Shown: in pieces, positions 1 to 15,182 of the stretch
Layout of the letters: each line of letters opens with the position of its first letter
Position numbering within the stretch: the stretch's first letter is position 1
Virus record (IMG/VR): IMGVR_UViG_3300028482_000024
Span: 1 to 15,182 of that record
Source of the DNA: a virus
DNA length: 15,182 nt
Strand: one strand, 5' to 3'
Translations under genes and position numbers: made by a program
The notes under the pieces: model-generated
The model's input: only the letters and a program-made list of their open reading frames with translations
Databases searched by the model: none
Told to the model about the DNA's origin: nothing

Positions 1-2
1 AT

Positions 3-1058
3 CGAACTACAAAAGCCTCTACATTTCAACTACTCTTGGATACCTTGGATTAGTTTGGCATTAGAGATAAATGTAGTATTAACCGCACGGATTTTACTAT
101 CACATTGCCGAATGGTTCGTCATTTTTATGTATGGGTCTTGACGACCCCGAAAAAATAAAATCTATTACAGGTTTGACGGACGCTTGGCTGGAAGAGGCG
201 ACCGAGTTTTCGCTTGACGATTTTAGTCAGGTGAATCTTCGTATAAGAGACCCGAAAGCCGAGGACCAGGAGGTTATATTATCATTCAACCCGGTCAGTA
301 AAGCGAATTGGTGTTATCTACAATTTTTCGCGGATAATGAAGAACTAACCGAGTTCCGCAAAACCGTAAAAATAGTTCATACAAATTATCTGGATAATCC
401 GTTCCTTCCTCCGGAGTATGTGTAGGCATTGTTATTGATGAAAGCAACTAACGAGGTCTATTACAAAATCTATGCTCTTGGAGAGTTCGGCAGTCTGGAT
501 AAATTGGTTTATAATAATTGGCAAAAGATGGATTTTGACCCGACATTAATTAAGGGCCAACTTCTATGCGGACTTGACTTCGGCTATACGAATGACCCAA
601 CGATGTTTATGGCATCAATACTGGTAGAAGAAGAAAGACGCATTTATGTGTTTAAGGAATGGGGAGGAACCGGTTTCTTGAACGACCAAATCGCAGATTA
701 GATAAAAGAAATGGGGTTCGCTAAAAGCCTCATTATGGCAGATAGTGCCGAGTAGAAATCAATTGATGAGATTAAGCGTAAAGGCATCGCCCGCATTAAG
801 CCCTGTGTAAAGGGGTAGGGTAGTGTGTTGTAGGGCATACAAAAACTTCAATAGTATGAAATCATAGTTCATCCATCTTGTCGCAACACGATTGAGGAAC
901 TTCAAAACTACTCTTGGAAGAAAGATAAGCAGACTAATGAGTATATCAACGAGCCCATTGACGCATTTAACCATAGCCTTGACTCGCTCCGATACTCGCT
1001 TCAATGTATCGACGCACGAGCACAATTGGCTTCTATGAATAAAGATTTATTGTTCTAA
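3..1058 (+). CDS. terL: Terminase large subunit (PBSX/Terminase_3-like), 5' truncated by the window edge; contains 7 in-frame TAG codons
   Basis: Frame 3 is open from the window edge to TAA 1056-1058 if the TAGs at 51, 423, 699, 753, 816, 831 and 852 are read as sense. The translation carries terminase motifs before and after the TAGs: DAWLEEATE (Walker-B-like), ILSFNP, GLDFGYTNDP, ADSAE-x-KSIDE, NYSWKKD and PIDAFNHSLDSLRY (nuclease domain). Track ORFs 105-425 and 429-701 are same-frame fragments of this gene. Confidence 0.9.
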
Positions 1059-1079
1059 TATTAAAAGGAGGACAAAAGA

Positions 1080-2447
1080 TTGTTTAGTCTAAATAATATT
1101 GAAGAATTAACAGATAAAGTAATCCGCAGAATTGTGGAGAATCATCGCAGTTCAGTGTTCCCTCGTTTGTAGAACTTGGAGAACTACTACAACGCGAAGA
1201 ATGTTATTAATAACAGACTTATGAAGGATAAGTCTAAACCTAATAATAAAATCGCAAATGCGTATGCGAGTTATATTACTGATACATTGGTTGGCTATTT
1301 TATCGGCGAACCCATTTCTTATACCTCAAATGACGACACCCTTTTGTAGGATTTAAGCATGATTTTTGAATATAATGACGAGGCTGATGAGAACGCTGAA
1401 CTCGCGAAGAATGCGAGCATCTACGGCGTGGCTTATGAGATGTTATATTTAAGCGAAGAGGATAAGATGATTAGGTTTAAGGCTCTTAACCCAAAAGAGA
1501 TTATTCCTATTTTTGATAAGACTGTGGAGCAGAACTTGATGGCAGTCATTCGTTATTATGATGATTATGATGTAGTTGATGATAAGACCTACACATTAGT
1601 TGAAGTCATCGATGGTTCGATGGTCCGCAGATATAAGATGGATAATTCTTTCTTACTTCTGGAAGAATATCCTCATTACTTTGGCATGGTGCCTATTGCT
1701 ATTTATAAGAACAATGAAGAAGAGCGTGGCGACTTTGAGGCTGTCATTAGTCTGATTGATGCGTATGATAAGATGGAGTCAGATACTTTAAATGATTTTG
1801 AATACTTTGTTGATGCTTATTTGGCTTTGTATGGCTTTACCGCAGAACCAGAAGATGTAGCACAGATGAAGGAGAATCGTATCCTACTCATGGATGAAGG
1901 CACCAGTGCTGAATGGCTTATCAAGCAGACCAGCGATACTTATGTCGAGAACATGAAGAACAGATTAGATGCTGATATTCATAAGTTCGCCAAGTGTCCT
2001 AATATGTCTGATAAGGAGTTTGCCTCTAACGCATCAGGCGTGGCTATTAAGTTCAAGTTGTTAGGCACAGAGAACCTCGTATCTATTAAGGAGCGTAAGT
2101 TCAAGCGTGGCTTACAGCAGAGATTAGAACTAATGAGTATGATTAATTCAGTATTACGCGAAGGCTTTGATTGGCGTGCTATTGATATTATCTTTACTCG
2201 TAATATCCCATCTAATGATACTGATATTGCTAACATGGTAAATACTTTGAAGGACATCGTTAGTGAAGAGACATTGCTGGCTCAAATCCCATTTGTCGAG
2301 GACGTTCAAGATGAATTAGAGCGTCTAAAACAAGAACGCGAAGAAAATAAAGAACTGAACCCATTTTTCCAAACAGGATTATCATATCAGACCAATGCTA
2401 TGGCTAACAGCACAGAGCAACAGGTTAAAGAGGAGGAGAAAGAATAA
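1080..2447 (+). CDS. Portal protein (SPP1 gp6-like), TTG start, 2 in-frame TAG codons
   Basis: AGGAGG at 1066-1071 lies 8 nt upstream of TTG 1080. The frame matches track ORF 1359-2447 and is interrupted only by TAG 1170 and TAG 1347. The restored N-terminus reads (M)FSLNNIEEL...FPRL-x-NLENYYNAKN...KPNNKIANAYASYITDTLVGYFIGEPISY, the typical gp6-family portal N-terminal region. The gene ends with TAA at 2445-2447 and encodes 455 aa, a typical portal size. Confidence 0.85.
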
Positions 2448-2836
2448 TGGGATTAGAATTATTGTTCCAGATTTTCGAGTTGTGTATTATTCCTCTATTA
2501 GCGGTGCTAACCGGCTATTTAGTTCAGTGGATTAAAGCAAAGACCGCAGAGGCAACAGAAAAGAACCAGAAGGATGTATTTGATAAATACATCACTATGT
2601 TGGGTGAAACGGTCGCCAAGTGCGTGTCCGCAACTAATCAGACCTATGTAGATGCGTTAAAGAAGGCCGGCTCATTTGATGCCGAGGCCCAGCAATACGC
2701 ATTTGATATGACCTTATCCGCAGTTATGGGCGTGTTGGGTCAGGATGCTATTGAATACTTAACCGCTATCTATGGTGATTTACACACTTATTTGACTACA
2801 TTAATTGAGGCCGAAGTAAAGGCACAGAAGGAGTAA
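2447..2836 (+). CDS. Small membrane-anchored protein (N-terminal TM helix; architecture reminiscent of LL-H-type holins); function uncertain
   Basis: Intact 129-aa ORF coupled to the portal stop (TAATG), with GAGGAGGAG upstream. It has the hydrophobic N-terminus LELLFQIFELCIIPLLAVLTGYLVQWI followed by a charged helical region ending LIEAEVKAQKE. There are no in-frame TAGs. Confidence 0.55.
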   Translation: MGLELLFQIFELCIIPLLAVLTGYLVQWIKAKTAEATEKNQKDVFDKYITMLGETVAKCVSATNQTYVDALKKAGSFDAEAQQYAFDMTLSAVMGVLGQDAIEYLTAIYGDLHTYLTTLIEAEVKAQKE

Positions 2837-2837
2837 T

Positions 2838-3746
2838 ATGAGTATCACAACAGTTCCAGAGGTTCCGCATTTTAATCGCTATGTTAAGCCGACTGTTGAG
2901 TTAGTCCTTCGACTATTGGCCGAGGCCTATGAAGACCAACACCTATTGGATAAGATACTAAAAGAAATTAGCGATGAAGTGTTCGCGGAACTGGCAAAAG
3001 AAATCCAACGGTTGGCTGATGATGGTAAAATTAATCTTGATAAAAAGATTGATTTATATAATAATCCCGCACTTCTCACCGCGTTAAAGCGGATTGAGGC
3101 GAAGTAGTTGTAGAGATTTACTGAATATTGTTGGATAGGATATCAGGTAATTGGGGAGAGTTTGGTGCGGGCTTACTCTACAACTCTCGCCGAGACTTAT
3201 CAGATGTTTAATTATACAAAAGGGCTTGACCCACATAACCTCTCTTCTGGACCAAAGTCGTATAATGTATATGTTTAGACAACTGACACTCATATTCGGG
3301 AGCAGGTGCTTAATGTGCCGTGGTGTCAGGATGGTAAGATTTATAGTGATAGACTCTGGGGACATGTAGCACAATTTCAATAGAAATTGAGTTATGTTTT
3401 AGAAGAGGGGATTAGTAAAGGTAGAGGTATGGAATGGATGATGTAGGCGTGGCAGAAATTGGCTGGTGGAACGGCGTATAACACTGCCCGCCTACTGAAA
3501 ACCGAGACAATGGCGATGTGGTCTCGGGCAACGAAAGACGCATATCTTGAAATGGGAATTGAATATGTCGCTATTGTGGGCGACGCAGAATGTGGAGGCA
3601 TTTGTCTGGATTATGTTGATGGCGAACCAATCCCATTGGCAGAGGCGGAGATTGGCGACCTACTCCCTCCATATCACCCGAACTGTGCTTGTAGTTTTGT
3701 GGCCTGGGAAGAGACTGTTGAAATCCCATTGGGCGAAGAAGTATAA
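2838..3746 (+). CDS. Head morphogenesis / minor capsid protein (Phage_Mu_F, SPP1 gp7-like), 5 in-frame TAG codons
   Basis: Track ORFs 2838-3107 and 3459-3746 share a frame and are joined by open sequence interrupted only by TAGs at 3105, 3111, 3276, 3381 and 3444. The joined protein (302 aa) shows the family hallmarks WCQDGKIYSDRLW, NTARLLKTETMAMW, and DAECGGICLDYVDGEPIPLAEAEIGDLLPPYHPNCACS (C-x-x-C ... PP-HPNC-C motif). It ends with TAA at 3744-3746. Confidence 0.85.
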
Positions 3747-3827
3747 ATCCATCGCTACTATTCTTAATATATTTTAGAAGGCTACAACTCAATGAGGGGT
3801 AGCAAATTAATTGGAGGTTTTATTTTT

Positions 3828-4418
3828 ATGGCTGAAATTGTAAATGATAAGGGTTCTGTTGTTGAATCTTCAACTGGCATTGAGACAGGGGAAGTCGCGG
3901 TTGAGAAAACTTATACTGAAAGCGAAGTCCAAGCATTATTACAACGCGAAGGCGACCGTAGAGTATCAAGTGCTCTGAAAAAGCAACAGAAAGAGTTCGA
4001 GAGACAAACCGCGGAGGCTGACAAGTTGAGAGATATGGACGAAAGTCAGCGTAAAGAGTATGAATATACTCAAAGGCTCCAAGAGTTAGAAAACAAAGAG
4101 CGAGAGTTCGCCATCGCCCAGAATAAGTTAGAGGCAACCAAAGTAATGGCGAACAGAGAACTCCCTATTGAGTTCGTTGATTATATCGTAGCAGAAGACG
4201 CAGAGACAATGATGGAGAATATCACCGCATTTGAACGAGCATTTAAGTCCGCAGTGGCCGATGCCGTAGCGAAGAAGATTGCGTCTCCCGCACCAAAGAC
4301 TGGGTCCGCTAAACAGACAGGTATGACAAAAGAGGAGTTCAGAAAGTTGTCAGTGGCACAACAGACTGAAATCTTCCGCACTAATCCTGAATTATATAAG
4401 CAGATGACCCGACAATAA
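3828..4418 (+). CDS. Capsid scaffolding protein (DUF4355-like)
   Basis: GGAGG at 3813-3817 lies 10 nt upstream of ATG 3828; the track start at 3792 lacks an RBS. The product is charged and coiled-coil-like: EVQALLQREGDRRVSSALKKQQKEFERQTAEADKLRDMDESQRKEYE...ELPIEFVDYIVAEDAETMMENITAFERAFKSAV. It sits directly upstream of the capsid gene and has no TAG. Confidence 0.8.
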   Translation: MAEIVNDKGSVVESSTGIETGEVAVEKTYTESEVQALLQREGDRRVSSALKKQQKEFERQTAEADKLRDMDESQRKEYEYTQRLQELENKEREFAIAQNKLEATKVMANRELPIEFVDYIVAEDAETMMENITAFERAFKSAVADAVAKKIASPAPKTGSAKQTGMTKEEFRKLSVAQQTEIFRTNPELYKQMTRQ

Positions 4419-4442
4419 CAAATATTAAAGGAGATTATAAAT

Positions 4443-5222
4443 ATGGCACATGTTATTTATGAAAACGAGATTTTGAGTAATAAACTGACTGACATTTTAA
4501 CTACTCAAATTGATATGAACGCTTACATGACCGTTGATACTTCCATGACCGAGCAGGCTGGTATGAAGAAAGTTATCAACACTTATGTCGCTTCTGGCGA
4601 TGTTGAAGAGTTGGCAATGGGCGAGGGCAATGAGACTGAAATCAGCGTAAGTTTCACTTCTGCCGAGTATGATGTTCTGACTTATCAGGGCTATTTCCAC
4701 TACTTCGACGAGCAGGCTATGACTGACCCCATGGTTGTTGATGCTGGCCTGGACGGTTCCGCAAAGACCATGGTTAATAAGTTCGTAGCAAAGGCAATTG
4801 AAGAGTTCGAGAAGGCAACTCTTGAAGCACCCGCATCCGCTTGGAGTTTCGAGGCTGTTGTTGATGCTATCGCAAAGATGAACCTTGAAGCAGAAGAGGG
4901 CTTGTTCCTGTTAATCTCTCCTGCCGACCAGGCTTCCTTCCGTAAGGCATTGAAGGACGATTTGAAGTATAGCGAAGGTTTCGTTCGCACCGGCTACATC
5001 GGCACTGTTTGCGGTGTGCCTGTCATCGTATCCAAGGCTGTTCCCGCTAATAAGGGCTATTTGGCTACCAAAGAGGCTGTTAGCGTATTCATTAAGAAGG
5101 ACACCGAAGTAGAGCAGGACCGCGACCCTGATACCCGTGATAATAAGTTCTGGGTTCGTAAGGTTGCTGTTGTCGCTCTGACCGATGCTACAAAGGCTGT
5201 TAAGATTAATATCGGTGGTTAA
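4443..5222 (+). CDS. Major capsid protein (HK97-fold type, short ~259 aa form)
   Basis: AAAGGAG lies 9 nt upstream of the ATG. The position after the scaffold, strong codon regularity and an intrinsic terminator directly downstream support the call. The sequence pattern (..GMKKVINTY..GDVEELAMGEG..FDEQAMTDP..) resembles small Firmicutes-phage capsid proteins that pair with DUF4355 scaffolds. No in-frame TAG. Confidence 0.8.
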   Translation: MAHVIYENEILSNKLTDILTTQIDMNAYMTVDTSMTEQAGMKKVINTYVASGDVEELAMGEGNETEISVSFTSAEYDVLTYQGYFHYFDEQAMTDPMVVDAGLDGSAKTMVNKFVAKAIEEFEKATLEAPASAWSFEAVVDAIAKMNLEAEEGLFLLISPADQASFRKALKDDLKYSEGFVRTGYIGTVCGVPVIVSKAVPANKGYLATKEAVSVFIKKDTEVEQDRDPDTRDNKFWVRKVAVVALTDATKAVKINIGG

Positions 5223-5247
5223 TCCACATTAAAAGATTGAATGAACT

Positions 5248-5293
5248 GGGCTTGCTTGTTCGAAAGGGCAAGCAAGCCCTTATTTTTATTTTA
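5248..5293 (+). terminator. Rho-independent terminator downstream of the major capsid gene
   Basis: A perfect 11-bp stem pairs GGGCTTGCTTG (5248-5258) with CAAGCAAGCCC (5269-5279) around a 10-nt loop, followed by the T-rich tract TTATTTTTATTTTA. Confidence 0.8.
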
Positions 5294-5308
5294 TTAAGGA
5301 GGATTTCA

Positions 5309-5605
5309 ATGTTAGACAAGATTAAACTTCTGTTGAGTAGATTAGATGATGACACCGCAGATGAACTATTGAATACTCTCATTTCTATGTGTAAAGAAGA
5401 GGCTTACATTTATTGTAATTTATCTGAATACGATAAGAAATTAGATAACATTGTTGTGTGTATGGTTATTGAAAAATATAACCGCATGGGTAGCGAAGGC
5501 ACTACAAGCCAGAGTTCTTCCGGCGTGTCCGCTTCTTATGACAGTTTTTACAGCGATAAGATTGTGCGTATGCTAAATAAGTTTAGAAAGGTTAAGATGG
5601 TATGA
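5309..5605 (+). CDS. Head-tail connector / adaptor protein (gp6-like, SPP1 gp15 position)
   Basis: AAGGAGG at 5296-5302 lies 6 nt upstream of ATG 5309; the track start at 5237 lies inside the terminator hairpin. The N-terminus MLDKIKLLLSRLDDDTADELLNTLISMCKEEAYIYCN matches the connector-family pattern (LK..L.i..d.D.ll..li..a). It ends with TGA at 5603-5605, overlapping the next ATG. Confidence 0.65.
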   Translation: MLDKIKLLLSRLDDDTADELLNTLISMCKEEAYIYCNLSEYDKKLDNIVVCMVIEKYNRMGSEGTTSQSSSGVSASYDSFYSDKIVRMLNKFRKVKMV

Positions 5606-5919
5606 TTAAAAGAGATACAATTCAGAGATATTCCGCCGTCCTAACCAAGGACGCGATGGGCGGGGATGTTGTTGATTTAGTTCCCGCAGAAAATGTAAGA
5701 GCACATGTTTCCATCAACTCTACTATTGGAGAAATCACCCAGTATGGGTTGAAAGAAGAAATGGTGCTACATGTTATAACCGATATCGAGTTAGATATTT
5801 ATATCCATACTCGTTATATGTATTCCGGTCGCCTGTTTAGATTAGTGCGTCAAATTAAGTAGGGTAATGAATATTATTCTACACTAATTGAAGTAAATGG
5901 AGGTAATGTAAATGCTTAA
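5602..5919 (+). CDS. Head closure protein (SPP1 gp16-like), extended 19 codons through TAG 5860
   Basis: The start is in an ATGA overlap with the previous gene. The standard-code ORF stops at TAG 5860-5862. Read-through adds [18 protein letters not shown] and ends at TAA 5917-5919, overlapping the next start by 8 nt. Size and synteny fit a head-closure protein. Confidence 0.55.
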
Positions 5920-6241
5920 CTATAATGCTGATACTAATGCCATTTCTATGATTGCGAAAGACACCGGAGATTTCGTAATTTCACTTGATAATTACTTACT
6001 TGCCGAGGGCGATAAGGTGTTTTTCACCGTGAATGATGGGTTAGAAAAGGAGCCCGCACTCATCTCTATCGTCGTTAGTGAGTTTGTTGATAATAAAGCC
6101 GTTATTCATCTATCTGCGACTGATACTAATTTGGCTCCTGGTAATTATTATTACGACGTTCAGGTAAATACTGCGGACGGTCGTATTGATACTGTATTGG
6201 GTCCAGCCAAGTTTAAAATCGCGGGAGGGGTGAAGTATTAA
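5912..6241 (+). CDS. Hypothetical beta-sandwich / Ig-like protein (first gene of the fibre block)
   Basis: GGAGG at 5899-5903 lies 8 nt upstream of the ATG. The ORF is an intact 109 aa. The C-terminal pattern [28 protein letters not shown] resembles Ig-like domains of phage baseplate/decoration proteins; this assignment is from memory only. Confidence 0.55.
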
Positions 6242-6735
6242 TGGCTAAAATTGAAGTTTTAAATAATATTGACGCAGTTGTTGAAGATATCCCTGTTATT
6301 AACACCTCTATGAGTAATGCCATTTATCGTGGCCCCAAAGGAGATAAGGGCGAGCGTGGAGATGTCGGCCCACAAGGTCCCCAGGGTATTCAAGGCGAAA
6401 AAGGCCAGGATGGTTCTATTGGACCCCAAGGCCCCGCAGGCAAAGATGGTGCCCCAGGTCCTCGTGGAGAGCGAGGCATTCAAGGTGAGATGGGACCACA
6501 GGGACCCGAAGGCCCCCAGGGACCTATCGGCCCCAAAGGCGAAATTGGTCCTATCGGTCCCGCAGGTAAAGATGGTGTTGATGGGGCCCCCGGACAAAAA
6601 GGTGATAAGGGCGAGCCCGGGGTTTCGGGCGTATATGTTGGAACTACTGCTCCTACTGATGAGAGTGTCGTGGTGTGGATTGATATTGCTGGCACAGGAG
6701 AAGATTTGGAGCCCGCAGAGGGAGGTAGTTATTAA
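6241..6735 (+). CDS. Collagen-like (Gly-X-Y) fibre protein 1
   Basis: There are about 33 uninterrupted G-X-Y triplets ([21 protein letters not shown]...GEPGVSG). The start is coupled by TAATG at 6239-6243, and the gene ends ...EPAEGGSY with TAA at 6733-6735 overlapping the next ATG. Confidence 0.9.
6331..6630 (+). repeat. Gly-X-Y collagen triple-helix repeat tract (9-nt periodic GGN-NNN-NNN)
   Basis: Direct reading of the translation, residues ~31-130 of the 6241-6735 product. This GC-rich periodic tract also generates spurious long ORFs in other frames and on the minus strand. Confidence 0.9.
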
Positions 6736-7865
6736 TGGCATTAAAGACTGTTAATGAAGAGAGTTTAGTGGCTCTTGGCAATGCGATTAGAGAAAAGACT
6801 AATACGAATGATTTGTTAGTATTTCCTAATGGTATGATTGACGCGATTAATTCTATTACTGGTGCTATTGAGGTGCCTGAAATTGAAATTAGTGGTAATG
6901 GTAATTATGCTTGTGCTGGTTTATCAGGTGAATATATTAATTTATTTGGAGATAAAATTAAGACGCGTAATTTAAGTAATGCGTAGTATATGTTCTCCTA
7001 TTGTAGTGCCCCTAATATTCCATTTGAAATTAATTTTTCTTCTTCTGCGAATATGTAGTATATGTTTAGAGGTTGTAAAATGAGAAATGTCCCAGTCATA
7101 AATAATGCGAAGCCATCATCATTATATAATTTTTTTGCTGATTGTTATTATTTAAGATATATTCCAGATAATTTCGGTGAAAATTGGGATTGGAGTTCAG
7201 TTAGTAATTCTTCTGCGAGTGTTTCTTATTTTTTTATTAATTGTTTTTCATTGAGATAGGTGCCAGCATTTTTTAAATAGCATTGTTGTGGGAAGCAGTC
7301 TGCTTAGCAGTGTTTATATTATAGCACTTTTCAAAATTGTTATACATTAGATGAAATTGTTGATTTGCCGGTTTATACGGCTACCGCTCTTACATCAAAT
7401 GTGTTTAATAGCACAGTTTCATAGGCTTCTCGTATTAAAGATTTTACATTTGAAGTAAATACTGATGGCACTCCAAAAATCGCACAGTGGAAGGGATAGA
7501 CATTCAATATGACTTATAATGTAGGATATTTATCATCATCTTATGTGGATACACTTACGGGATATAATACTGGTTTAACCAAAGATACACGTATTACTAA
7601 TGACGAGAATTATCAATTATTAAAAGACAATCCTGATGCTTGGACTGTTGATATAAAATATTCTCGTTATAATCATGATAGTGCCGTCCGCACCATTAAC
7701 TCTCTGCCTGATACATCTGCCTATCTCGCGTCTGCGGGTGGCACGAATACGATTAAGTTCAAAGGTGCTTCTGGCAGTGCGACGGACGGAGGGGCCATTA
7801 ACACATTAACCGAAGAAGAAATCGCAGTAGCAACCGCAAAAGGTTGGACTGTAAGTTTAGCATAA
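6735..7865 (+). CDS. Putative fibre tip / adhesin with BspA/DUF285-type FxxC leucine-rich-like repeats, 7 in-frame TAG codons
   Basis: Track ORFs 6735-6986, 7062-7259 and 7509-7865 share a frame and are separated only by TAGs at 6984, 7056, 7257, 7278, 7305, 7422 and 7497. The joined 376-aa protein has repeated YMFSYC / YMFRGC / NFFADC / YFFINC / TFQNC motifs, with WDWSSVSN in between. The N-terminal LGNAIREKTNTNDL motif is shared with the 8532 gene. The C-terminus reads TEEEIAVATAKGWTVSLA. Ends with TAA. Confidence 0.7.
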
Positions 7866-7876
7866 GGAGGCTAACT

Positions 7877-8068
7877 ATGATTAGTAAAGATTTTATTTTA
7901 ACACGCTATGATGCCGATGTCGGCAAAGTATTTGATTGGAAAGAGCCTCGTTATATTGAGGATGAAAATGGAAATCAAATCCAAGAGCATCTATATGTAA
8001 AGACATTATTTATCGGAAATAATGACACTATTGACAACTACATTGAAATTGAGGAGGTAGTTGAATGA
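7877..8068 (+). CDS. Small hypothetical protein (63 aa), paralog of the 9762-9932 product
   Basis: AAGGAGG at 7865-7871 lies 5 nt upstream of ATG 7877. The shared motif is F/Y-DW..P...HLYVK.LF...ND.I-D/E-NYI. It ends with TGA at 8066-8068 in an ATGA overlap with the next gene. Confidence 0.55.
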
Positions 8069-8532
8069 GTGTTTTAAGATTTAAAGACCCTGCTACTAAT
8101 GAGTGGAAAGAAATTACTACTATTATGGGACCTGCGGGTCCCCAGGGTCCAAAAGGTGAAGATGGCGGTATTAAGTTTGAAGAACTGACCGACGCACAAA
8201 AAGAAGAATTACGTGGCCCACAGGGTATTCAAGGACCACAAGGTGAAACCGGTCCGCGAGGAGAGCAAGGTCCTGCCGGCCCCGAGGGCCCACAAGGCAT
8301 TCAGGGTCCAAAGGGCGACACAGGGGAACAAGGCCCGATTGGCCCAGAGGGTCCCGCAGGCCACACCCCCATAAAAGGCACGGATTATTTTACAGAGGCC
8401 GATAAAACTGAATTAGTGGCTGATGTTGAGGCCATTATGACTAATAAAGGATATCAAACCGAGGCGTAGGTCAATGCGTTGATTACTACTGCTCTTGGTA
8501 ATATTGGTGTAGCGGAGGAGGGTTCTTATTAA
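8065..8532 (+). CDS. Collagen-like (Gly-X-Y) fibre protein 2, extended 21 codons through TAG 8467
   Basis: GAGGAGG lies 9 nt upstream of the start. There are 4 + 17 G-X-Y triplets, then [18 protein letters not shown], a motif common in phage collagen-like fibres. Read-through of TAG 8467 adds [20 protein letters not shown], reproducing the ...EGGSY C-terminus and the TAATG junction of collagen-like protein 1. Confidence 0.85.
8128..8367 (+). repeat. Gly-X-Y collagen repeat tract (two blocks separated by a 17-residue interruption)
   Basis: Direct reading: [12 protein letters not shown], then the interruption [17 protein letters not shown], then [51 protein letters not shown]. Confidence 0.85.
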
Positions 8533-9116
8533 TGAGTAAAGTATTTATTGAAGAAGAAACCCTTATTGGGATTGGTAATGCCATTCGTGAAAAGAACGGC
8601 ACTACGGATTTGATTGCGACTACTGATATGGCTACTGCGATTAGTAATCTGGCTACTGGAAATGGTAGTGGTAATTGGAGTGCCCCTGTGGCTCTAACGT
8701 GGGCGGATACTCAAATTAAAAATGGTGTCAAAGATTCAACAACAACTACTATAACATTTGATTTTTCTAATAAAATTGAGGCTTATGACTATGATTGGAT
8801 GTTTTTAACGTGTTGGGCGGTCTCTGGCTCTACAAAATATACGGTTGCGGTTATGCCTCTAACAACAGTTTTCCCCGACAATGTTGATACAGCAGTTAAG
8901 TTAGATAATTGTGGTGTTTGGTATATGTAGTATGGTAAAAGTGGCTCTGCCACTAACGCTAACGTAAATGCGTTGATTCCTTACTCCTTATACATCGAAG
9001 CATATTATAACCCTGCGACTTGTGAATTAAAATTACGCGGTTCAGGAATGTCAGAAAATCAATTTAAAAATTATGTTGATACAGTAGGCCAGTTGGTTCA
9101 TCGTAAATCTACTTAA
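8532..9116 (+). CDS. Putative fibre tip protein 2 (shares the N-terminal GNAIREK docking-like motif with the 6735 gene), 1 in-frame TAG
   Basis: The start is coupled to the collagen-like gene 2 stop (TAATG). The N-terminus EEETLIGIGNAIREKNGTTDLIATTDMATAISNL parallels NEESLVALGNAIREKTNTNDLLVFPNGMIDAINSI. The standard-code ORF stops at TAG 8928; read-through adds 62 codons, ending at TAA 9114-9116 just ahead of the next RBS. Confidence 0.65.
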
Positions 9117-9132
9117 TAAGGAGGTTTTGCCG

Positions 9133-9750
9133 ATGGGATTATATTGTGAGTTTAGTATAGTTGATGATTTAGGTTATCCGGCCGACTTGTCAGGCGGAGA
9201 TGAAAAAATCGGTGAGGCTTCGGTTTTTGTGAATTATTCCGCGGCGGTAGAAGCATTCATCACGACCTTTTTAGAAGTCGCTAATGAGTTAGTCCCCGTC
9301 GATACTGGATTTTTATAGAGCACCATTGATGCGGGCGGAGGTAGTGATTGGTGCTGGTGTGAAGCGACCGCAGACTACGCTCAATATGTAGAATACGGCA
9401 CAATTAGCATGGACGCATAGCCCTACTTTGAACCGGCTCTTATGGCAGGGATTGAGGCTCTTGGAGGAGAAGCAGAAATAGCCATAAGCGAAGCGTAGGA
9501 TGAATTAGAAGCCATACTGTCGAGTCTGATGGAGGCATCAATGGCGATGGCCGGTAGTTCAGGTGGTATGGGCGGTATGTTCTCCATGGGCTGGGGTCAA
9601 TTCTTTATGGGATTGGCGATTTTCGCGGCGATAACAATCATATTATTTCCGATTTTGGTAAATGTATATGCGATAATAGACTCATTAAGTTATAAGAGTG
9701 ATAGTGGTGGAGGCGGAGGAGGAGGCCTCCCCGAGGTCATTATTACATAA
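9133..9750 (+). CDS. HK97 gp10-like tail completion / head-tail joining protein (SPP1 gp16.1 position) with a glycine-rich transmembrane C-terminal extension, 3 in-frame TAG codons
   Basis: AAGGAGG at 9118-9124 lies 8 nt upstream of ATG 9133; the track TTG at 9127 is too close to the RBS. Track ORFs 9127-9318 and 9529-9750 share a frame, joined through TAGs at 9316, 9418 and 9496. Family motifs span the TAGs: VPVDTGFL-x-STI and ADYAQYVEYGTISMDA-x-PYFEPAL. The C-terminus reads GSSGGMGGMFSMGWGQFFMGLAIFAAITIILFPILVNVYAII...SGGGGGGGL. Confidence 0.7.
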
Positions 9751-9761
9751 GGAGGATTAAA

Positions 9762-9932
9762 ATGGCGAGATTAAGTAATCGTATGATTAAATACGAAGCC
9801 CCCGCAGGTTTCGTATATGACTGGGCCACTCCAAAAGATGATGGCAGTCATTTATATGTAAAATATTTATTTTTATCTAAAAATGATAAAATTGAAAATT
9901 ATATCCTGGTAAAAGACCCAAAAGAGGTGTAA
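9762..9932 (+). CDS. Small hypothetical protein (56 aa), paralog of the 7877-8068 product; below the ORF-track size cut-off
   Basis: AAGGAGG at 9749-9755 lies 6 nt upstream of ATG 9762. The translation is MARLSNRMIKYEAPAGFVYDWATPKDDGSHLYVKYLFLSKNDKIENYILVKDPKEV. It ends with TAA at 9930-9932, 2 nt before the next ATG. Confidence 0.5.
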   Translation: MARLSNRMIKYEAPAGFVYDWATPKDDGSHLYVKYLFLSKNDKIENYILVKDPKEV

Positions 9933-9934
9933 TT

Positions 9935-10351
9935 ATGTTAGAGAAATTAAAGACTGATTTTTACACAATGCTGGTTGAAGAACTGGGTTTAAATGTGCGA
10001 GATAACCGTAATTTCGAGGATGTCGAAAGCCCCTGGTTATTGCTTCGCACTAATGGATATCAACGCGTCCATAGTTTAGGGGTAAGGATGTCTAAAATTA
10101 CATTGGTATTAGATGTATTTTCCCAGTATAATGGCGAAAGAGAAATCATTCAAATCGTTGATAAAGTCGCAGACAGTATCGATGGATTTTTGGCTCAACA
10201 CCCCGAAGTATTATTTTGCCATCAAAGAACCGTTAAGATTTTGGATGATAAATCTACGGGAGTAGTTCGTAAGCACGGCGTGATTGCTTACGAGTTTATG
10301 ATGGGGGAGCATTTTGCTCTCGAAGGCGAGGAGGACCGCACTGATGAGTAA
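9935..10351 (+). CDS. Probable tail terminator / tail-to-head joining protein (SPP1 gp17 position)
   Basis: Intact 138-aa ORF between the gp10-like gene and the major tail gene. The call rests on size and synteny only. The TAA at 10349-10351 overlaps the next start (ATGAGTAA). Confidence 0.45.
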   Translation: MLEKLKTDFYTMLVEELGLNVRDNRNFEDVESPWLLLRTNGYQRVHSLGVRMSKITLVLDVFSQYNGEREIIQIVDKVADSIDGFLAQHPEVLFCHQRTVKILDDKSTGVVRKHGVIAYEFMMGEHFALEGEEDRTDE

Positions 10352-10730
10352 TGTAGCCCGCAGTATTGATACTGTAATTCGCCTAAATGGCGTGGCTCTT
10401 GGCGGACAGCAGGGAGCCAATCTGGTTAGACAGACCGAGGCCATTGATATTACTAATCATATTAATGGTGAATGGTCCGAGAGTCTCGCAGGTAAGAAGA
10501 GTTGGAGCATTGTGTGCTCTGGCTTATATATCACTAATGATAGAGCCTTTAACCTTTTGGATGATGCTTTTATGAATAATAAGACTGTTGAAGTTCTTAT
10601 TTCTTTTGGCTCAACTAAATTGAAGGGTAATGCCATTATCACTGATTTTCCTTTGAGTTCTGTGTTTAATAAGGAGTTTAAATATAATGTTAGACTCCTT
10701 GGCACAGGGGCACTTCTGCCGGAGGCATAA
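10344..10730 (+). CDS. Major tail (tube) protein, TP901-1/phi13 family type
   Basis: GAGGAGG at 10328-10334 lies 9 nt upstream of ATG 10344; the track start at 10314 is inside the previous gene. The 128-aa product fits the family pattern: LNGVALGGQQGANLVRQTEAIDITNHINGEWSESLAGKKSWSIVCSGLYI..AFNLLDDAF..KTVEVLISFG..LKGNAIITDFPL...KYNVRLLGTGALL. Confidence 0.8.
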   Translation: MSNVARSIDTVIRLNGVALGGQQGANLVRQTEAIDITNHINGEWSESLAGKKSWSIVCSGLYITNDRAFNLLDDAFMNNKTVEVLISFGSTKLKGNAIITDFPLSSVFNKEFKYNVRLLGTGALLPEA

Positions 10731-10731
10731 G

Positions 10732-11220
10732 ATGCTTCTACGAACCCATAGAAAAATCTATGAGTTCAATTTTGGTCTCAAAGGATTAATTATGATGCGA
10801 GAAAACGCAGATTTAGTGATGGCAAATGATAAGCATTTTATTTTATATTGTGGGCTTGTGAGTAAGCAACCCACAATTACATTTCAGGAAATTGATGAAA
10901 TTATAAATGAATGCGACTTATCGCAACTTGACATCACACCAAATATCCTTTCTTTATTCGAAGTTGAGGAGTTATACACGAAGGCCGTTGGCGAAATAGG
11001 TATAACTCCCAACGATTTTTACTCTATGACTCCTGGCGAGATTGACCTCGCTTATGAGGGTTATTTGAGAAGAAAAGAGACCGAAGCGAACTTAACCAAA
11101 ATGGCTATTATAACCAGCCAAGACGGTGAATTAATACGTTTAACAGAAGATAAGGGTTATTCCGTAGGCAGTAAGGCAGAACGAGAAAAAGTGTTTAGAT
11201 TATTAAATATTCAAGAATAA
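10732..11220 (+). CDS. Tail assembly chaperone (G-like N-terminal half and T-like C-terminal half in one frame)
   Basis: GGAGG at 10721-10725 lies 6 nt upstream of ATG 10732. The N-terminus KIYEFNFGLKGLIMMRENADL matches the TAC pattern, and the C-terminal GITPNDFYSMTPGEIDLAYEGYLRR matches the P..FW.lTp.El motif of chaperone T-type segments (from memory). It sits directly after the tail tube gene. Confidence 0.6.
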   Translation: MLLRTHRKIYEFNFGLKGLIMMRENADLVMANDKHFILYCGLVSKQPTITFQEIDEIINECDLSQLDITPNILSLFEVEELYTKAVGEIGITPNDFYSMTPGEIDLAYEGYLRRKETEANLTKMAIITSQDGELIRLTEDKGYSVGSKAEREKVFRLLNIQE

Positions 11221-11232
11221 GGGGGATTTTAA

Positions 11233-11403
11233 ATGAATTATAATGAACTCTTAACCCAGTTATCGACAAAGATGTCATCTGCGTCAATTAAAGCAAGTGG
11301 CTCCCGCACTGCTAATAACGCAGTATCGACACCGAAGGAAGATAACACCTCTACAATGTTGAATAAGATTGGATTAGAAGTCCAAAGACAAGGAGGATAT
11401 TGA
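11233..11403 (+). CDS. 56-aa hypothetical protein occupying the slot where a tape measure gene is expected
   Basis: AAGGGGGA lies ~6 nt upstream of ATG 11233. The translation is MNYNELLTQLSTKMSSASIKASGSRTANNAVSTPKEDNTSTMLNKIGLEVQRQGGY. TGA at 11401-11403 overlaps the next ATG (TGATG). It is below the track size cut-off, and coding status is not proven. Confidence 0.4.
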   Translation: MNYNELLTQLSTKMSSASIKASGSRTANNAVSTPKEDNTSTMLNKIGLEVQRQGGY

Positions 11404-14400
11404 TGCTAATTAATGGAATTGAATTAAGTAAGTTGGGCGTTCAGTTGTTTGACCGCGTGCTGTATAGCAACTCAATTGATACCGCACAGGAATGGTTAGA
11501 CGGCGACATTCAGCCTACATTTATTCGCCAGCAAGACCGCTTCAAGACCATTGAATTACAGTTTTTAGTTTTGAGTGCCGATGAAGATGAGGCATTTAGA
11601 CGCATTAGTAAATTAACCGCTATGCTAAAAAAGGCTACTGTAAAGTTCGATGATTTAGGTCTTATGTTTGATGTTAGCATTACTAATGTGGGCGAACCAT
11701 CTCGTCTAAAAAATGGCAACTTCGTTGTATCTTACACATTATCCAGTGGATATGCGAAGGGTCAGCGAGAGATTTACACCACAAATGCTAATATGACTAA
11801 CTCATTTAAATTAACTGTCGCATATTACAAGAACTCAACAACCTTACTATCAAGCGAGACTGTTGTAATTCGTGCTTCTGCTTTTGACAAGGAAAATCTC
11901 GGATTGGCGGATTTGGGAATTGATGTAAATAAGCATCAACCTGAATACCATAATAATGGTGTCGCAACCAATCTAAATGGTTTAGACTTAACCTATGAGA
12001 ACTTACAAAGTTTAAAGGTGTTAATTATTAATTACGCACCTATTAGTTATAACCTATCTGTTGTCTATTATATGGATAACGGTCAAGGTCTATATAACGA
12101 AATACTGAACCGCACGGTTTCATTTACGCAAGAAGGTTTATCAAATTATCAGACTATCGGCCAGTTGGTCGGAGTCAAGGATTATCGTCCAGAAGGATAT
12201 AAAGGTAAAGTATCTTACACCGGAGCATTGGAACTGAATGAACTATTGGCTCATGCCCCGATTTCTGTATTCTACGACAAGATTGAAACAGAAATGAGTA
12301 AGAATATTTTCATTGCCTATAAAGCAGAAAATGATGACGGAGGATTTGACACTATCCAGTCCGTTATTATTAATGTTAGTGAGGCTCAATTTTATGATGG
12401 TCTAACTCTCAAAGACATTATCAGCGTTGATGGTTATAATCCCAATCCAAGTTATTATAATGCGGGTTATATTGATGGATTCGCCTCTAATGCTCTTATT
12501 ACTTATGAGAATATTGAGACCGCGTATAGTGTCATTTATACCAAGGCTGTAAATACTGTTTATGTAGAATACTACGCAGGAACTTATCCCGATTGGTATA
12601 GATTATCAACTGCTACATTACAGACAAAGCATTTGGATAAGTATGATAGAGCGTTCAACGTTTTAACTGATTTGAACCTGGACTTAAATAAATATCATAC
12701 TGCCCCATATAATGATGGTGCGTTATATAATCAAGACATTTATCAGACTTATGATGATGTGCTGAACGCAGGCGTTTTACAAGTTTATTACACCGCTATT
12801 GATTATCCAATCACTGTTAATTATTATGTGGGAGACTTAACCGCTACTCCCGTTAGCGAGACCGTTAATATTAACGCATTAATGTTCTTCGGCAATCCTA
12901 TTTTGAGTGATATTATTCCTATTTTGGCACATCGTCCAGAAGGATATCAATTTAGTGAGAACTTTTCTTATAATGGCGAGGTAAGTTTGGAGGCATTGAC
13001 CCAGGCTTCACCTATTATGGTCGTCTATGAAGAAATCGAAGTGATGCGTTCAAAGAATATCATCGTCCGTTATAAGCAGGAATTGGCATCCGCATACTCA
13101 ACAATTACAACTAATTTAATTACTGTTAATGAGGCTGACATAATTGGTGGTGTGCGTTTAAAGGATGTTATCGCACTGGACGCGTATCGTCCTGAATACT
13201 ATGACAGTGGCATTATTGATGGTGCGAGTTCAACTGCTCTTATGACATTTGACACTCTTGGAGCGTCTTATGATGTATTATACGTAGCAAAGAGTTATAC
13301 TACTCCCGTCCGCTACTATATTGACGAGATTGATGATTTACATTGGATTGGTAGTGCTTCAATTAGTTATCGAGTAATTGATTTTGAGACCACTACTACT
13401 CTATTTGATTTTGGACTTAACTTAAATGCTTATAAGCCCTCTTATGCGGGTGATGGCGTTTTACAATATACTGGTCCTGTTATTTTCTCCGCTCTCTTGG
13501 ACGCACAATCCATTGATGTATTGTATTTAACAGAGACTACTCCACCTGACGAAGATGGTATTGACTATCCTCACCGTTTCTTGTTCTTACAGCATAACGA
13601 TTTGGGTAGTTATGAATATCTACATCCTGAATGGACTATGAACCACGCATTTATTAACACAGGCGTGTCCGCAGAAGATATGTCCCGTTTAACCGTGGTT
13701 ATGGAGTGTGCCCGAGCAGATGAAAATGTCCCCATGTATCAAGTAAATGCGGGATATTCTTATTTATTTGGTAGCACAGGAACCCAGGGCTCATTCTTCA
13801 TGAGATATAATAACCAGACAATGTATGGCGAGGGCCTGACAGGCGTAGATACTTACGAAGCCAAGGCAGGTAATTACAGCAACGCATTAGTGCTGACCGC
13901 AGACAGTGCCGTAGGATTTAGTGAGAATACAGGTATTTATAGTTCTCCACAAGAGGGTTATAGCCGTGCCACTTTCACTTACAGCAACCTTTTGGCAACC
14001 GACGGGGCTCCGATGACTTATCCATTGTATTTGTTCGCAAATAATAATTATGGTAGTTATTCTAACGGCATCGCAGGTGTAGGTATTTATAGTTGTCGTA
14101 TTTATTATAACGACCAAATCATCCGTGATTTCATTCCAGTTCAATTCTACGATAAGATTGGCGATTTAGTCGCACCAAGCAACTGCTTATACGATAAGAT
14201 TACCAAGACCTTCTTCGAGGATGGCACAGGATTAAATAGTTTTAATATTCGTGATGATGAACGTTATGAGGATACAAATCTACAACATAAAATCGGACAT
14301 TGTTATGTCAATTATTATAAGGGTCTCGACTTTATGAAGACTGTCGTCGTGTATTTCCGTGGCGATGAGTTTGACGATGGCGAGTTCGACCTTTATGAGC

Positions 14401-15182
14401 GTTTCGCAGTAGATGCGAATCAGCCACAATATACTTTCTCCGGCGAAATTAAAAATGTTAATAATATTAATGTATCTTTTGATGGATTAAATAATAAAAC
14501 ATTTGAGGTATATTATGAGCCGATTGAGACTCAAATCACTGTTAATTACTATAAGGTTGAAGACAATGGAGATAAAACCGTATTAGCAAGTGAAATTATC
14601 GCATTGAAGGAGAAGGATTTCTATCAGGTTCCTACTTTTGGAGATTTAGTTCGTCTAAATAAATATAAGCCTGATGGTTATGAAACTAACTTTAAATATA
14701 CAGGTAGCAAGGTGTCTTTGGCTCGTGTTGTTGAGGGTTCGCCTTATAACATCGAATACACCAAAATGACCGAGGACAAAATCCCATATTCTACTACTAT
14801 TAAATACATCAAAAAAGTATTTGGTGTGCGTGAATATGAGACTATCGGCACCAAGATTTTAACATTCGACCAGAGCGATTTCCGCGATGGTGAATACATT
14901 GATTTTTACATTGATAAAAATCTGATGAAACCTGAAAAATATTACGTGGATGGCACCACTTATCAATGGTATGAAATGGATGAGCGGTTAGATAAACCTG
15001 AAAATCTAAAAGAGTCTTACACCATTATGTATTCTCCTGAACGCCAATATTTAGATGTAAATTACTACACTGATGAGGTTGATGAGGAGAACTACATCGC
15101 AGGTATGACTTGGAGCCTGGCGATTGATGAATTAGACCCTCGCTTAACTTATAGCATCGTTGATATCTTCCCTAACGAGTAT
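11403..15182 (+). CDS. Giant distal-tail protein: Dit-like N-terminal domain followed by tandem ~83-aa MucBP-like beta repeats and a central jelly-roll-like domain; 3' end beyond the window
   Basis: AAGGAGGA lies 6 nt upstream of ATG 11403. Hand translation gave 1260 codons with no stop of any kind through the window edge; the ORF is absent from the track, presumably because it has no stop in the window. The N-terminus MLINGIELSKLGVQLFD...FDDLGLMFDVSITNVGEPSRLKNGNFVVSYTLSSGYAKG fits the siphovirus distal tail protein pattern. Repeats carry V.YY ... Y-K/R-P-E/D-GY ... V.Y motifs. Confidence 0.85.
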   Translation, partial: MLINGIELSKLGVQLFDRVLYSNSIDTAQEWLDGDIQPTFIRQQDRFKTIELQFLVLSADEDEAFRRISKLTAMLKKATVKFDDLGLMFDVSITNVGEPSRLKNGNFVVSYTLSSGYAKGQREIYTTNANMTNSFKLTVAYYKNSTTLLSSETVVIRASAFDKENLGLADLGIDVNKHQPEYHNNGVATNLNGLDLTYENLQSLKVLIINYAPISYNLSVVYYMDNGQGLYNEILNRTVSFTQEGLSNYQTIGQLVGVKDYRPEGYKGKVSYTGALELNELLAHAPISVFYDKIETEMSKNIFIAYKAENDDGGFDTIQSVIINVSEAQFYDGLTLKDIISVDGYNPNPSYYNAGYIDGFASNALITYENIETAYSVIYTKAVNTVYVEYYAGTYPDWYRLSTATLQTKHLDKYDRAFNVLTDLNLDLNKYHTAPYNDGALYNQDIYQTYDDVLNAGVLQVYYTAIDYPITVNYYVGDLTATPVSETVNINALMFFGNPILSDIIPILAHRPEGYQFSENFSYNGEVSLEALTQASPIMVVYEEIEVMRSKNIIVRYKQELASAYSTITTNLITVNEADIIGGVRLKDVIALDAYRPEYYDSGIIDGASSTALMTFDTLGASYDVLYVAKSYTTPVRYYIDEIDDLHWIGSASISYRVIDFETTTTLFDFGLNLNAYKPSYAGDGVLQYTGPVIFSALLDAQSIDVLYLTETTPPDEDGIDYPHRFLFLQHNDLGSYEYLHPEWTMNHAFINTGVSAEDMSRLTVVMECARADENVPMYQVNAGYSYLFGSTGTQGSFFMRYNNQTMYGEGLTGVDTYEAKAGNYSNALVLTADSAVGFSENTGIYSSPQEGYSRATFTYSNLLATDGAPMTYPLYLFANNNYGSYSNGIAGVGIYSCRIYYNDQIIRDFIPVQFYDKIGDLVAPSNCLYDKITKTFFEDGTGLNSFNIRDDERYEDTNLQHKIGHCYVNYYKGLDFMKTVVVYFRGDEFDDGEFDLYERFAVDANQPQYTFSGEIKNVNNINVSFDGLNNKTFEVYYEPIETQITVNYYKVEDNGDKTVLASEIIALKEKDFYQVPTFGDLVRLNKYKPDGYETNFKYTGSKVSLARVVEGSPYNIEYTKMTEDKIPYSTTIKYIKKVFGVREYETIGTKILTFDQSDFRDGEYIDFYIDKNLMKPEKYYVDGTTYQWYEMDERLDKPENLKESYTIMYSPERQYLDVNYYTDEVDEENYIAGMTWSLAIDELDPRLTYSIVDIFPNEY
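11802..13556 (+). repeat. Seven tandem divergent ~83-aa protein-domain repeats, including a higher-order ~252-aa (756-nt) duplication (about 12045-12800 vs 12801-13556)
   Basis: Units begin FKLTVAYYKN, YNLSVVYYMD, SKNIFIAYKAE, NTVYVEYYAG, YPITVNYYVG, SKNIIVRYKQE and YTTPVRYYID. Units 2-4 align in order with units 5-7, for example RPEGYKGKVSYTG...SKNIFIAYK vs RPEGYQFSENFSYNG...SKNIIVRYK. Confidence 0.7.
14283..15182 (+). repeat. Second array of the same ~80-aa repeat type (at least 3.5 units, continuing past the window)
   Basis: Units begin GHCYVNYYKG, TQITVNYYKVED (with NKYKPDGYETNFKYTG), YSTTIKYIKK and YLDVNYYTDE. Confidence 0.65.

Follow-up and report, generated by a model that had tools for sequence, protein, structure and literature searches.

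Does a phage change its genetic code part of the way along a single late operon? The question is raised by the virus record IMGVR_UViG_3300028482_000024 of IMG/VR, of which positions 1 to 15,182 (the window, the whole stretch of DNA that was analyzed) carry in-frame TAG codons in the head genes and none in the tail genes that follow position 9751, among them the first 1260 codons of a giant tail open reading frame (ORF). The original prediction took this difference for a sharp recoding boundary. Analysis of the source contig and of related genomes leads to another answer. TAG very probably encodes glutamine throughout the late genes of this ~25.8-kb phage, called W here, and the TAG-free stretch is then a local trough in patchy, gene-specific TAG use. 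Positions are window positions unless they are marked as contig-equivalent.

TAG counts inside the window

The genes of W were called with TAA and TGA as the sole stops and TAG read as sense, and TAG use was expressed relative to the glutamine-type codons (TAG, CAA and CAG). Genes g01-g15 (3..9750) contain 27 in-frame TAGs in 3188 codons, compared with 0 in 1805 codons, or 0 of 55 glutamine-type codons, for g16-g21 (9762..15182). The portion of the giant ORF that lies in the window accounts for 39 of these glutamine-type codons, and the five small tail genes in front of it (9762..11403) hold merely 16-17 together. The last TAG before the stretch is at 9496, in g15. These values agree with the counts first reported for the window, which were 27 TAGs upstream of 9751 and none downstream, with 7 TAGs among 20 glutamine-type codons in the terminase and none in the giant ORF. 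Full translation of 9751-15182 revealed no in-frame TAG.

The stretch exceeds chance if TAG use is uniform. A Fisher test of 27/125 against 0/55 glutamine-type codons gives p = 2.4e-5, a binomial calculation on the window alone gives 2e-7 per codon and 1.5e-6 per glutamine-type codon, and the longest TAG-free run in the window has a permutation p = 6e-4. The earlier chance estimate of ~1e-7 was too optimistic. The upstream half is itself patchy. The 15 upstream genes differ among themselves in TAG use (permutation chi-square p = 0.0045), and six of them (g03, the scaffold, the major capsid, g07, g09 and g10) have no TAG at all. TAG-free runs upstream extend over 3453-5851 (25 glutamine-type codons) and 1530-3006 (22).

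The TAG-free stretch ends inside the giant tail gene

The source contig of W (ENA ERZ27246352, k141_465237; 25,994 nt) was reached by look-up of the 56-amino acid g20 protein. Locus L047 on this contig matches window 1233-15182 without a single difference over 13,950 nt (100%) and supplies the sequence that the window cuts off. The full giant ORF in L047 has 2946 codons and 7 in-frame TAGs among 87 glutamine-type codons, so the description of this ORF as TAG-free does not survive reading it to its stop. The first of these TAGs is codon 1458 (window-equivalent position 15774), 197 codons past the window end. A 118-amino acid ORF with only a C-terminal Dit domain follows on the 3' side (0 TAG in 3 glutamine-type codons), and the Tal / Prophage_tail gene next to it has 3 TAGs in its first 256 codons. 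The TAG-free stretch thus extends from 9499 to window-equivalent position 15773, a distance of ~2090 codons with 63 consecutive CAA or CAG codons; its start lies within g15 or immediately behind it, and its end lies within the giant gene. Over W as a whole, TAG makes up 7 of 87 glutamine-type codons in the giant gene and 30 of 154 in the rest. Recoding extends over the entire tail module. Because the TAG-free run stops within the giant ORF and recoded genes come after it, the stretch represents a local trough of TAG use rather than the boundary of two codes. The proposed sharp boundary near 9751 is incompatible with the seven TAGs in the same giant ORF and the three in Tal, and the end of the window exaggerates the trough.

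Capsid and giant ORF searches of IMG/VR and a 5.8-billion-protein collection were used to gather a family of roughly 25-kb TAG-recoded genomes. The nearest complete genome, relative A (IMG/VR UViG_3300012974_000005; L039 + L001), is circular with 25,689 bp and a 123-nt terminal repeat. Judged as a candidate block of standard code, the stretch is not delimited at a gene boundary, since it ends at giant codon 1458, and there are no TAG terminators within it. It is also not TAG-free in the family: TAGs occur among the terminator, tube, chaperone, g20 and giant genes of A, of the more distant relative B and of L040-L046, L053, L054 and L056.

TAG corresponds to glutamine

The PHROG terminase and minor-head profiles align without interruption over the in-frame TAGs of W. 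Twenty of the 25 W TAG sites that can be aligned to A are opposite TAG, CAG or CAA. In the reciprocal comparison, the window residue opposite TAGs of relatives is glutamine in 54 cases, and the runner-up residue accounts for 11. The stops of all 22 W genes with a visible end, in the window or in the source contig, are TAA or TGA and never TAG. With TAG read through, 86% of the plus strand falls in ORFs of 150 codons or more, compared with 52% in the standard code. Judged by these alignments, TAG is a sense codon predicted to encode glutamine in all late genes of W including the tail genes, with no code switch at 9751. The reading of TAG as glutamine in the original prediction is supported both by the homology that continues over the TAGs and by the codons found opposite them in A.

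TAG use is gene specific and conserved across the family

TAG use was compared over 12 related genomes including W. The pooled numbers of TAGs among glutamine-type codons are as follows.

Scaffold: 1/107
Capsid: 2/43
g03: 0/15
g08: 1/33
g09: 0/16
Giant gene: 83/902 (9%)
Terminase: 17/58
Tal: 31/131
Minor head protein: 30/78
g15: 33/82
Chaperone: 35/98

TAG use is gene specific and conserved over the family. The TAG fraction reaches 36-40% in the minor head protein, g15 and the chaperone, and the giant gene uses TAG 2-6 times less than the rest of the genome in all nine genomes in which it is complete or nearly so. A Cochran-Mantel-Haenszel test of the giant gene against the rest over the 12 genomes gives p = 3e-13, a value that is optimistic because the genomes are related. 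Density does not vary randomly among genes; per-gene rates are conserved over the 12 genomes, and the picture of the tail half as a TAG-free module is not supported. Among the explanations offered earlier for the stretch, different selective regimes is the one that agrees with this pattern.

Genes that lie in the stretch were then pooled over the relatives, with W left out (11 relatives).

Terminator: 7/38
Tube: 12/60
Chaperone: 35/92
g20: 7/32
Giant gene: 76/815

The tail genes of recoded relatives therefore do contain TAG where those of W do not. L054 is the closest relative in the tail genes (amino acid identity of 91% for g16, 89% for the tube and 93% for the chaperone), and it has a TAG opposite a W CAG in the tube, another opposite a W CAA in g15, and further TAGs in the terminator and g20. 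The giant gene of A has a TAG at codon 14, where W has CAG, and TAGs in the first part of this gene are also found at codon 38 (L053 and L056) and codon 44 (B and L045). Individual sites turn over quickly. At about 88% nucleotide identity, W and A share 3 of 8 terminase TAG sites, and the seven terminase TAGs of W correspond in A to TAG (three), CAG (three) and CAA (one). Since TAG sites turn over fast yet per-gene densities stay conserved, the densities point to a maintained mutation-selection balance rather than frozen history.

Proposed origin of the trough

Three components would combine to form the trough. The five small tail genes offer few glutamine codons to begin with, the giant tail gene has the low TAG level seen in each family genome in which it is complete or nearly so, and the seven giant-gene TAGs of W all fall in the more divergent 3' segments that the window cuts off. 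TAG and CAG are exchanged by single transitions and turn over quickly. UAG decoding presumably competes with release factor 1, and selection may remove TAG where early termination costs most; this cost would be heaviest for the most abundant virion proteins (scaffold and capsid) and for the gene of 2946 codons. From the code, the TAG use past the window, the per-gene densities and the TAG/CAG turnover, all of them observed, we infer a selective cause in protein yield or termination cost.

Several results weigh against this account. Zero TAG over g17-g20 plus the first 46 giant-gene glutamine codons has P = 6e-5 at family-wide rates and 0.005-0.01 at the rates of the closest relatives, both values being post hoc. 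Part of the trough is lineage specific: the chaperone has 3-6 TAGs in most relatives and none in W, A and L054, which means that gene identity alone is insufficient. The product of the giant gene is probably a tail-tip component of low copy number, and abundance therefore cannot explain the depletion of TAG in that gene; only the argument from length and termination cost applies. In W, the TAG fraction also correlates with the use of G-ending codons (rho 0.71), which is not the case for most relatives. A general shunning of G-ending codons was not adopted as the explanation for TAG avoidance, because the correlation is present in W, L054 and L056 and absent in A, B, L041, L045, L053 and L044.

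Alternative explanations for the stretch

Shuffling experiments separate the unremarkable part of the stretch from the non-random part. When gene order is shuffled with internal patterns kept, a run of at least 63 TAG-free glutamine codons arises in 14% of trials, so there is nothing remarkable in TAG-free small tail genes lying next to the giant gene. A within-gene shuffle gives p = 0.004, and the non-random part is the location of all seven W giant-gene TAGs in the second half of the gene. These TAGs are all at sites where local identity between W and A is below 88% (0 of 41 against 7 of 46 glutamine-type codons; Fisher p = 0.013, Mann-Whitney p = 9e-4), and four of the seven are opposite non-glutamine codons in A, as expected from amino acid replacement at variable sites. 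The alignments suggest that the W giant-gene TAGs may have arisen in fast-evolving or exchanged cassettes of a mosaic gene. It is possible, as a complement to gene-specific TAG use, that the giant gene has a TAG-poor conserved backbone, represented in W, A and L054, and variable cassettes that bring or generate TAGs. The trough would then mark the backbone, and the cassettes would be swapped or fast-evolving, perhaps for host recognition. In L054, five of six giant-gene TAGs come after codon 2300, as this arrangement predicts. The asymmetry between the two ends of the gene is not conserved, however: A has both of its TAGs (codons 14 and 944) within the first third of the gene, in a conserved part, L056 has four in the first 1660 codons, and those of B, L045 and L053 are spread all along the gene. 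All of these counts are small, and the data had already been seen when the identity threshold was picked.

At the alignment column of codon 1458, the first TAG of the W giant gene, B likewise carries TAG and the codon of A is CAA. In L056, which the alignment does not include, codon 1459 by its own numbering is TAG. This TAG site may be ancient, or TAG may have arisen there more than once.

Another alternative is uniform TAG use with a chance gap that was noticed for its length. Sampling noise of this kind is unlikely. The stretch was selected post hoc, its small tail genes are glutamine-poor (zero TAG has P = 0.03 when the non-giant rate is applied), and the gene-order shuffle returns such a run readily, all of which favor noise. 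A uniform permutation on the extended contig, however, produces a run of at least 63 TAG-free glutamine codons in only 1.5e-4 of trials, and the upstream genes already differ in TAG use. Individual genes keep their low or high TAG use across as many as 12 genomes, which is impossible for a uniform model, and noise was discarded as the whole explanation.

It is very unlikely that the tail/adhesin module was imported from a standard-code phage or prophage so recently that TAGs have not yet built up. Recombination does occur in the area, since 6353-10700 is mosaic relative to A (36-58% amino acid identity, compared with 90-98% for head genes). A TAG-poor block from the chaperone to the giant gene is common to W, A and L054, and the same capsid family includes standard-code and TGA-recoded members. 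Against import stand the TAGs in the giant ORF and in Tal and the absence of a donor: every tail-gene or giant-ORF relative that turned up in three collections, including IMG/VR and the 5.8-billion-protein collection, is TAG-recoded, and standard-code contigs match only ~180-210 amino acids at the start of the giant ORF with 31-33% identity. Closer kin outside the TAG-recoded family, which the acquisition proposal anticipated, did not appear. Divergence between W and A at 4-fold sites is 0.47 in the giant gene and 0.22-0.44 in the head genes, which argues that the block is as old as the heads and remained poor in TAG in each of the two lineages during the turnover of TAG sites in the head genes. 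The TAG-free stretch crosses at least three segments of differing W-A identity. Composition at synonymous sites is not distinct either. Base use at 4-fold sites gives p = 0.07 for upstream against the patch, p = 0.41 for the patch against downstream and p = 0.54 for the N-terminal against the C-terminal half of the giant gene, and the density of off-frame TAGs is flat (2.9, 3.1 and 3.2 per 100 codons upstream, in the patch and downstream).

GC skew drops from ~0.2 to ~0.05 at the giant ORF (11000-15182), with unchanged synonymous-site composition. This shift probably reflects the Tyr/Asn/Ile/Thr-rich composition of the giant protein, not a foreign origin. A compositional change point near 9.5-9.9 kb was looked for and rejected, as the skew falls only at the giant gene and there is no synonymous-site break.

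The remaining proposal, that the tail genes are a module translated before TAG decoding becomes available, has almost no probability: it can draw on the idea that in-frame stops hold back late gene expression and are avoided by some gene families (Borges et al., 10.1101/2021.08.26.457843), but a full-length giant protein needs the reading of seven TAGs, TAG occurs at codons 14-44 of the giant gene in relatives and in their terminator, tube and chaperone genes, the tail genes share a collinear operon with the TAG-rich head genes, and a complete relative genome has no detected suppressor tRNA gene whose timed expression could be awaited. A functional truncated product of 1457 amino acids ending at the first TAG was likewise considered and rejected in view of the relatives with TAG at codons 14-44 of the same gene.

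Supply of TAG decoding

ARAGORN with default settings found no tRNA in the window, in circular relative A or in L047, L043, L045, L053, L054 and L056, with all but ~5.8 kb of the W contig covered. Relaxed settings returned low-scoring candidates only, none with a CTA anticodon, in the window, A and further relatives. Rfam (gathering and E-value thresholds) gave no match in the window, the complete genome of A or several further relatives. Since no tRNA or suppressor gene was found in a complete recoded genome or its relatives, TAG decoding must depend on the host, on a helper or on some factor that escaped detection. If there is no cryptic suppressor, a host or helper would supply TAG-to-glutamine decoding, which would imply a bacterial lineage with constitutive amber suppression, and per-gene TAG density would act as a conserved dial on protein yield. 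We regard this scenario as rather improbable. The dial would be set near zero for the scaffold and capsid, low for the giant tail gene and high for the terminase, minor head protein and chaperone.

Clades B and L053 have TAG in non-structural genes as well (an HNH endonuclease and small regulators), at 17/45 and 18/47 glutamine-type codons.

Other codes appear to be in use among capsid relatives with 54-69% identity. L009, L011-L013, L020 and L023-L026 form a TGA set, and L003-L005 are apparently standard. TGA read-through restores long ORFs in the TGA set, and TGA is opposite tryptophan of window proteins at 10 of 22 sites. Three codes appear within one capsid family.

The search for a host through prophage relatives gave only distant capsid relatives in bacterial genomes and one closer match, a short contig binned in a metagenome-assembled genome (MAG). 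The distant capsid relatives (at most 51% identity) are prophages in Clostridia genomes. L057 (GenBank JAZNBJ010000071.1, 20.8 kb) is TAG-recoded, has a capsid of 64% identity and is binned in a Candidatus Gastranaerophilaceae MAG; this lineage is a weak host lead, from binning only.

Gene content of the window

The window is a single collinear plus-strand late operon of a tailed phage with 21 tightly packed genes when TAG is read through. Its features are listed below.

3..1058, plus strand: terminase large subunit, 5' truncated by the window; 7 TAGs in 20 glutamine-type codons; PHROG terminase profiles
1080..2447, plus strand: portal protein; 2 TAGs in 14 glutamine-type codons; PF05133 SPP1_portal on the identical source contig
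Between portal and minor head protein, plus strand: g03, a 129-amino acid gene; no TAG in W
2838..3746, plus strand: minor head protein (SPP1 gp7 / Mu F-like); 5 TAGs in 14 glutamine-type codons; PHROG minor head matches
3792-4418, plus strand: scaffold; no TAG in W
4443-5222, plus strand: major capsid; no TAG in W
3' of the major capsid, plus strand: head-tail adaptor-type small genes
Inside 6353-10200, plus strand: two collagen-like genes, g10 and g13
6735..7865, plus strand: g11, no assigned function; 7 TAGs in 12 glutamine-type codons; inside the hypervariable region 6353-10200
9133..9750, plus strand: g15, tail-completion / HK97 gp10-like; 3 TAGs; phrog_5 match
Start 9762, plus strand: g16, a 56-amino acid gene, paralog of g12; no TAG
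9935-10351, plus strand: tail terminator; no TAG; PHROG terminator match
10344-10730, plus strand: tail tube; no TAG; PHROG major tail match
10732-11220, plus strand: chaperone-like g19; no TAG; one weak PHROG match of unknown function
Last of the five small tail genes spanning 9762..11403, plus strand: g20, a 56-amino acid gene; no TAG
11403..15182, plus strand: giant tail ORF, first 1260 codons, running off the window; no TAG in the window part

Matches to PF14265 and PF25209 in the source contig identify the scaffold and major capsid (3792..5222). A megablast comparison of the complete window with 50,697 GenBank phages gave no match, and g11, g14, g20, g16, g12, g09, g03 and the giant ORF matched no PHROG or Pfam family. 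The hypervariable block 6353-10200 sits between the conserved head and tail-tip genes and includes g10, g13, g11, g14, g12 and g16. It is barely alignable to A, whose nucleotide identity to W is 88% to the left of the block and 84% over the giant ORF to the right. The paralogs g12 and g16 are 39% identical (E 3e-13).

Possible identity of the giant tail gene

The giant protein of 2946 amino acids takes up about one-third of the genome. No gene of tape-measure size is present in W, where the tube, chaperone-like g19 and giant ORF are separated only by the 56-amino acid g20 (10344-15182; L047 10171-20171). The C-terminal Dit domain of the 118-amino acid ORF after the giant ORF corresponds to PF22768. 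A PDB sequence search with the giant N-terminus found nothing. The AlphaFold model of the N-terminal 150 amino acids has low confidence (pLDDT 53), and the top Foldseek matches of this low-confidence model are Dit/baseplate proteins, TP901-1 4v96 and SPP1 Dit 2x8k (E ~0.007-0.04). The domain content and the model suggest that the giant ORF and the 118-amino acid ORF may together be a split, hugely expanded distal tail protein.

Implications

Had the boundary held, recoded genomes would be built of modules with different codes even in one late operon, which is not so here. The result is a caution that a TAG-free run in a truncated window is not equal to a code boundary. The positive result is modest: in this small family of recoded phages, each gene has its own frequency of the reassigned codon, and these frequencies are conserved from genome to genome. 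Such a pattern is expected if UAG decoding is imperfect and tuned by selection gene by gene. The family, in which no suppressor tRNA was found and whose close capsid relatives use three codes, could be a compact system for determining who supplies the decoding.

Comparison with known recoded genomes

Phage genomes split into blocks of different codes have been formalized by Mgcod (bioRxiv 10.1101/2022.06.29.495998). At first sight W resembles them, as a long region with in-frame TAGs lies beside a long one without. The stretch in W is not a standard-code block, because it ends mid-gene, recoded genes resume after it, no TAG terminators occur and it is not kept in relatives.

Organisms with reassigned codes, ciliates for example, avoid the reassigned stop codons in their highly expressed genes. 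The likeness to W is that the reassigned stop behaves as a disfavored synonymous codon with a frequency that varies by gene. The difference is that for W a link to abundance or gene length would be inferential.

The closest parallel is with the TAG-to-glutamine 'code 15' phages of gut and rumen. TAG- and TGA-recoded phages with close relatives on other codes, preference and avoidance of the recoded codon at the level of gene families, and the detection of suppressor tRNAs in only ~40% of TAG-recoded genomes have all been described (Borges et al., 10.1101/2021.08.26.457843). TAG-to-glutamine recoding in crAss-like phages has been reported by Yutin et al. 2021 (PMC7886860) and, with metaproteomics, by Peters et al. 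2022 (PMC9523058). W shares with these phages the in-frame TAGs in structural genes opposite glutamine codons in relatives, the absence of TAG as a terminator, the close relatives with other codes, and the division into gene families that favor the recoded codon and others that shun it. The W family differs in size, its complete relative having ~25.7 kb compared with ~105 kb for the crAss-like and ~127 kb for the Agate genomes used there for gene-level statistics. It also differs in that no tRNA of any kind was found and some clade members have TAG even in non-structural genes. Its TAG-poor genes are the scaffold, the capsid and the giant tail gene, not integrases. With these differences, W is an ordinary member of the known TAG-to-glutamine recoded phages.

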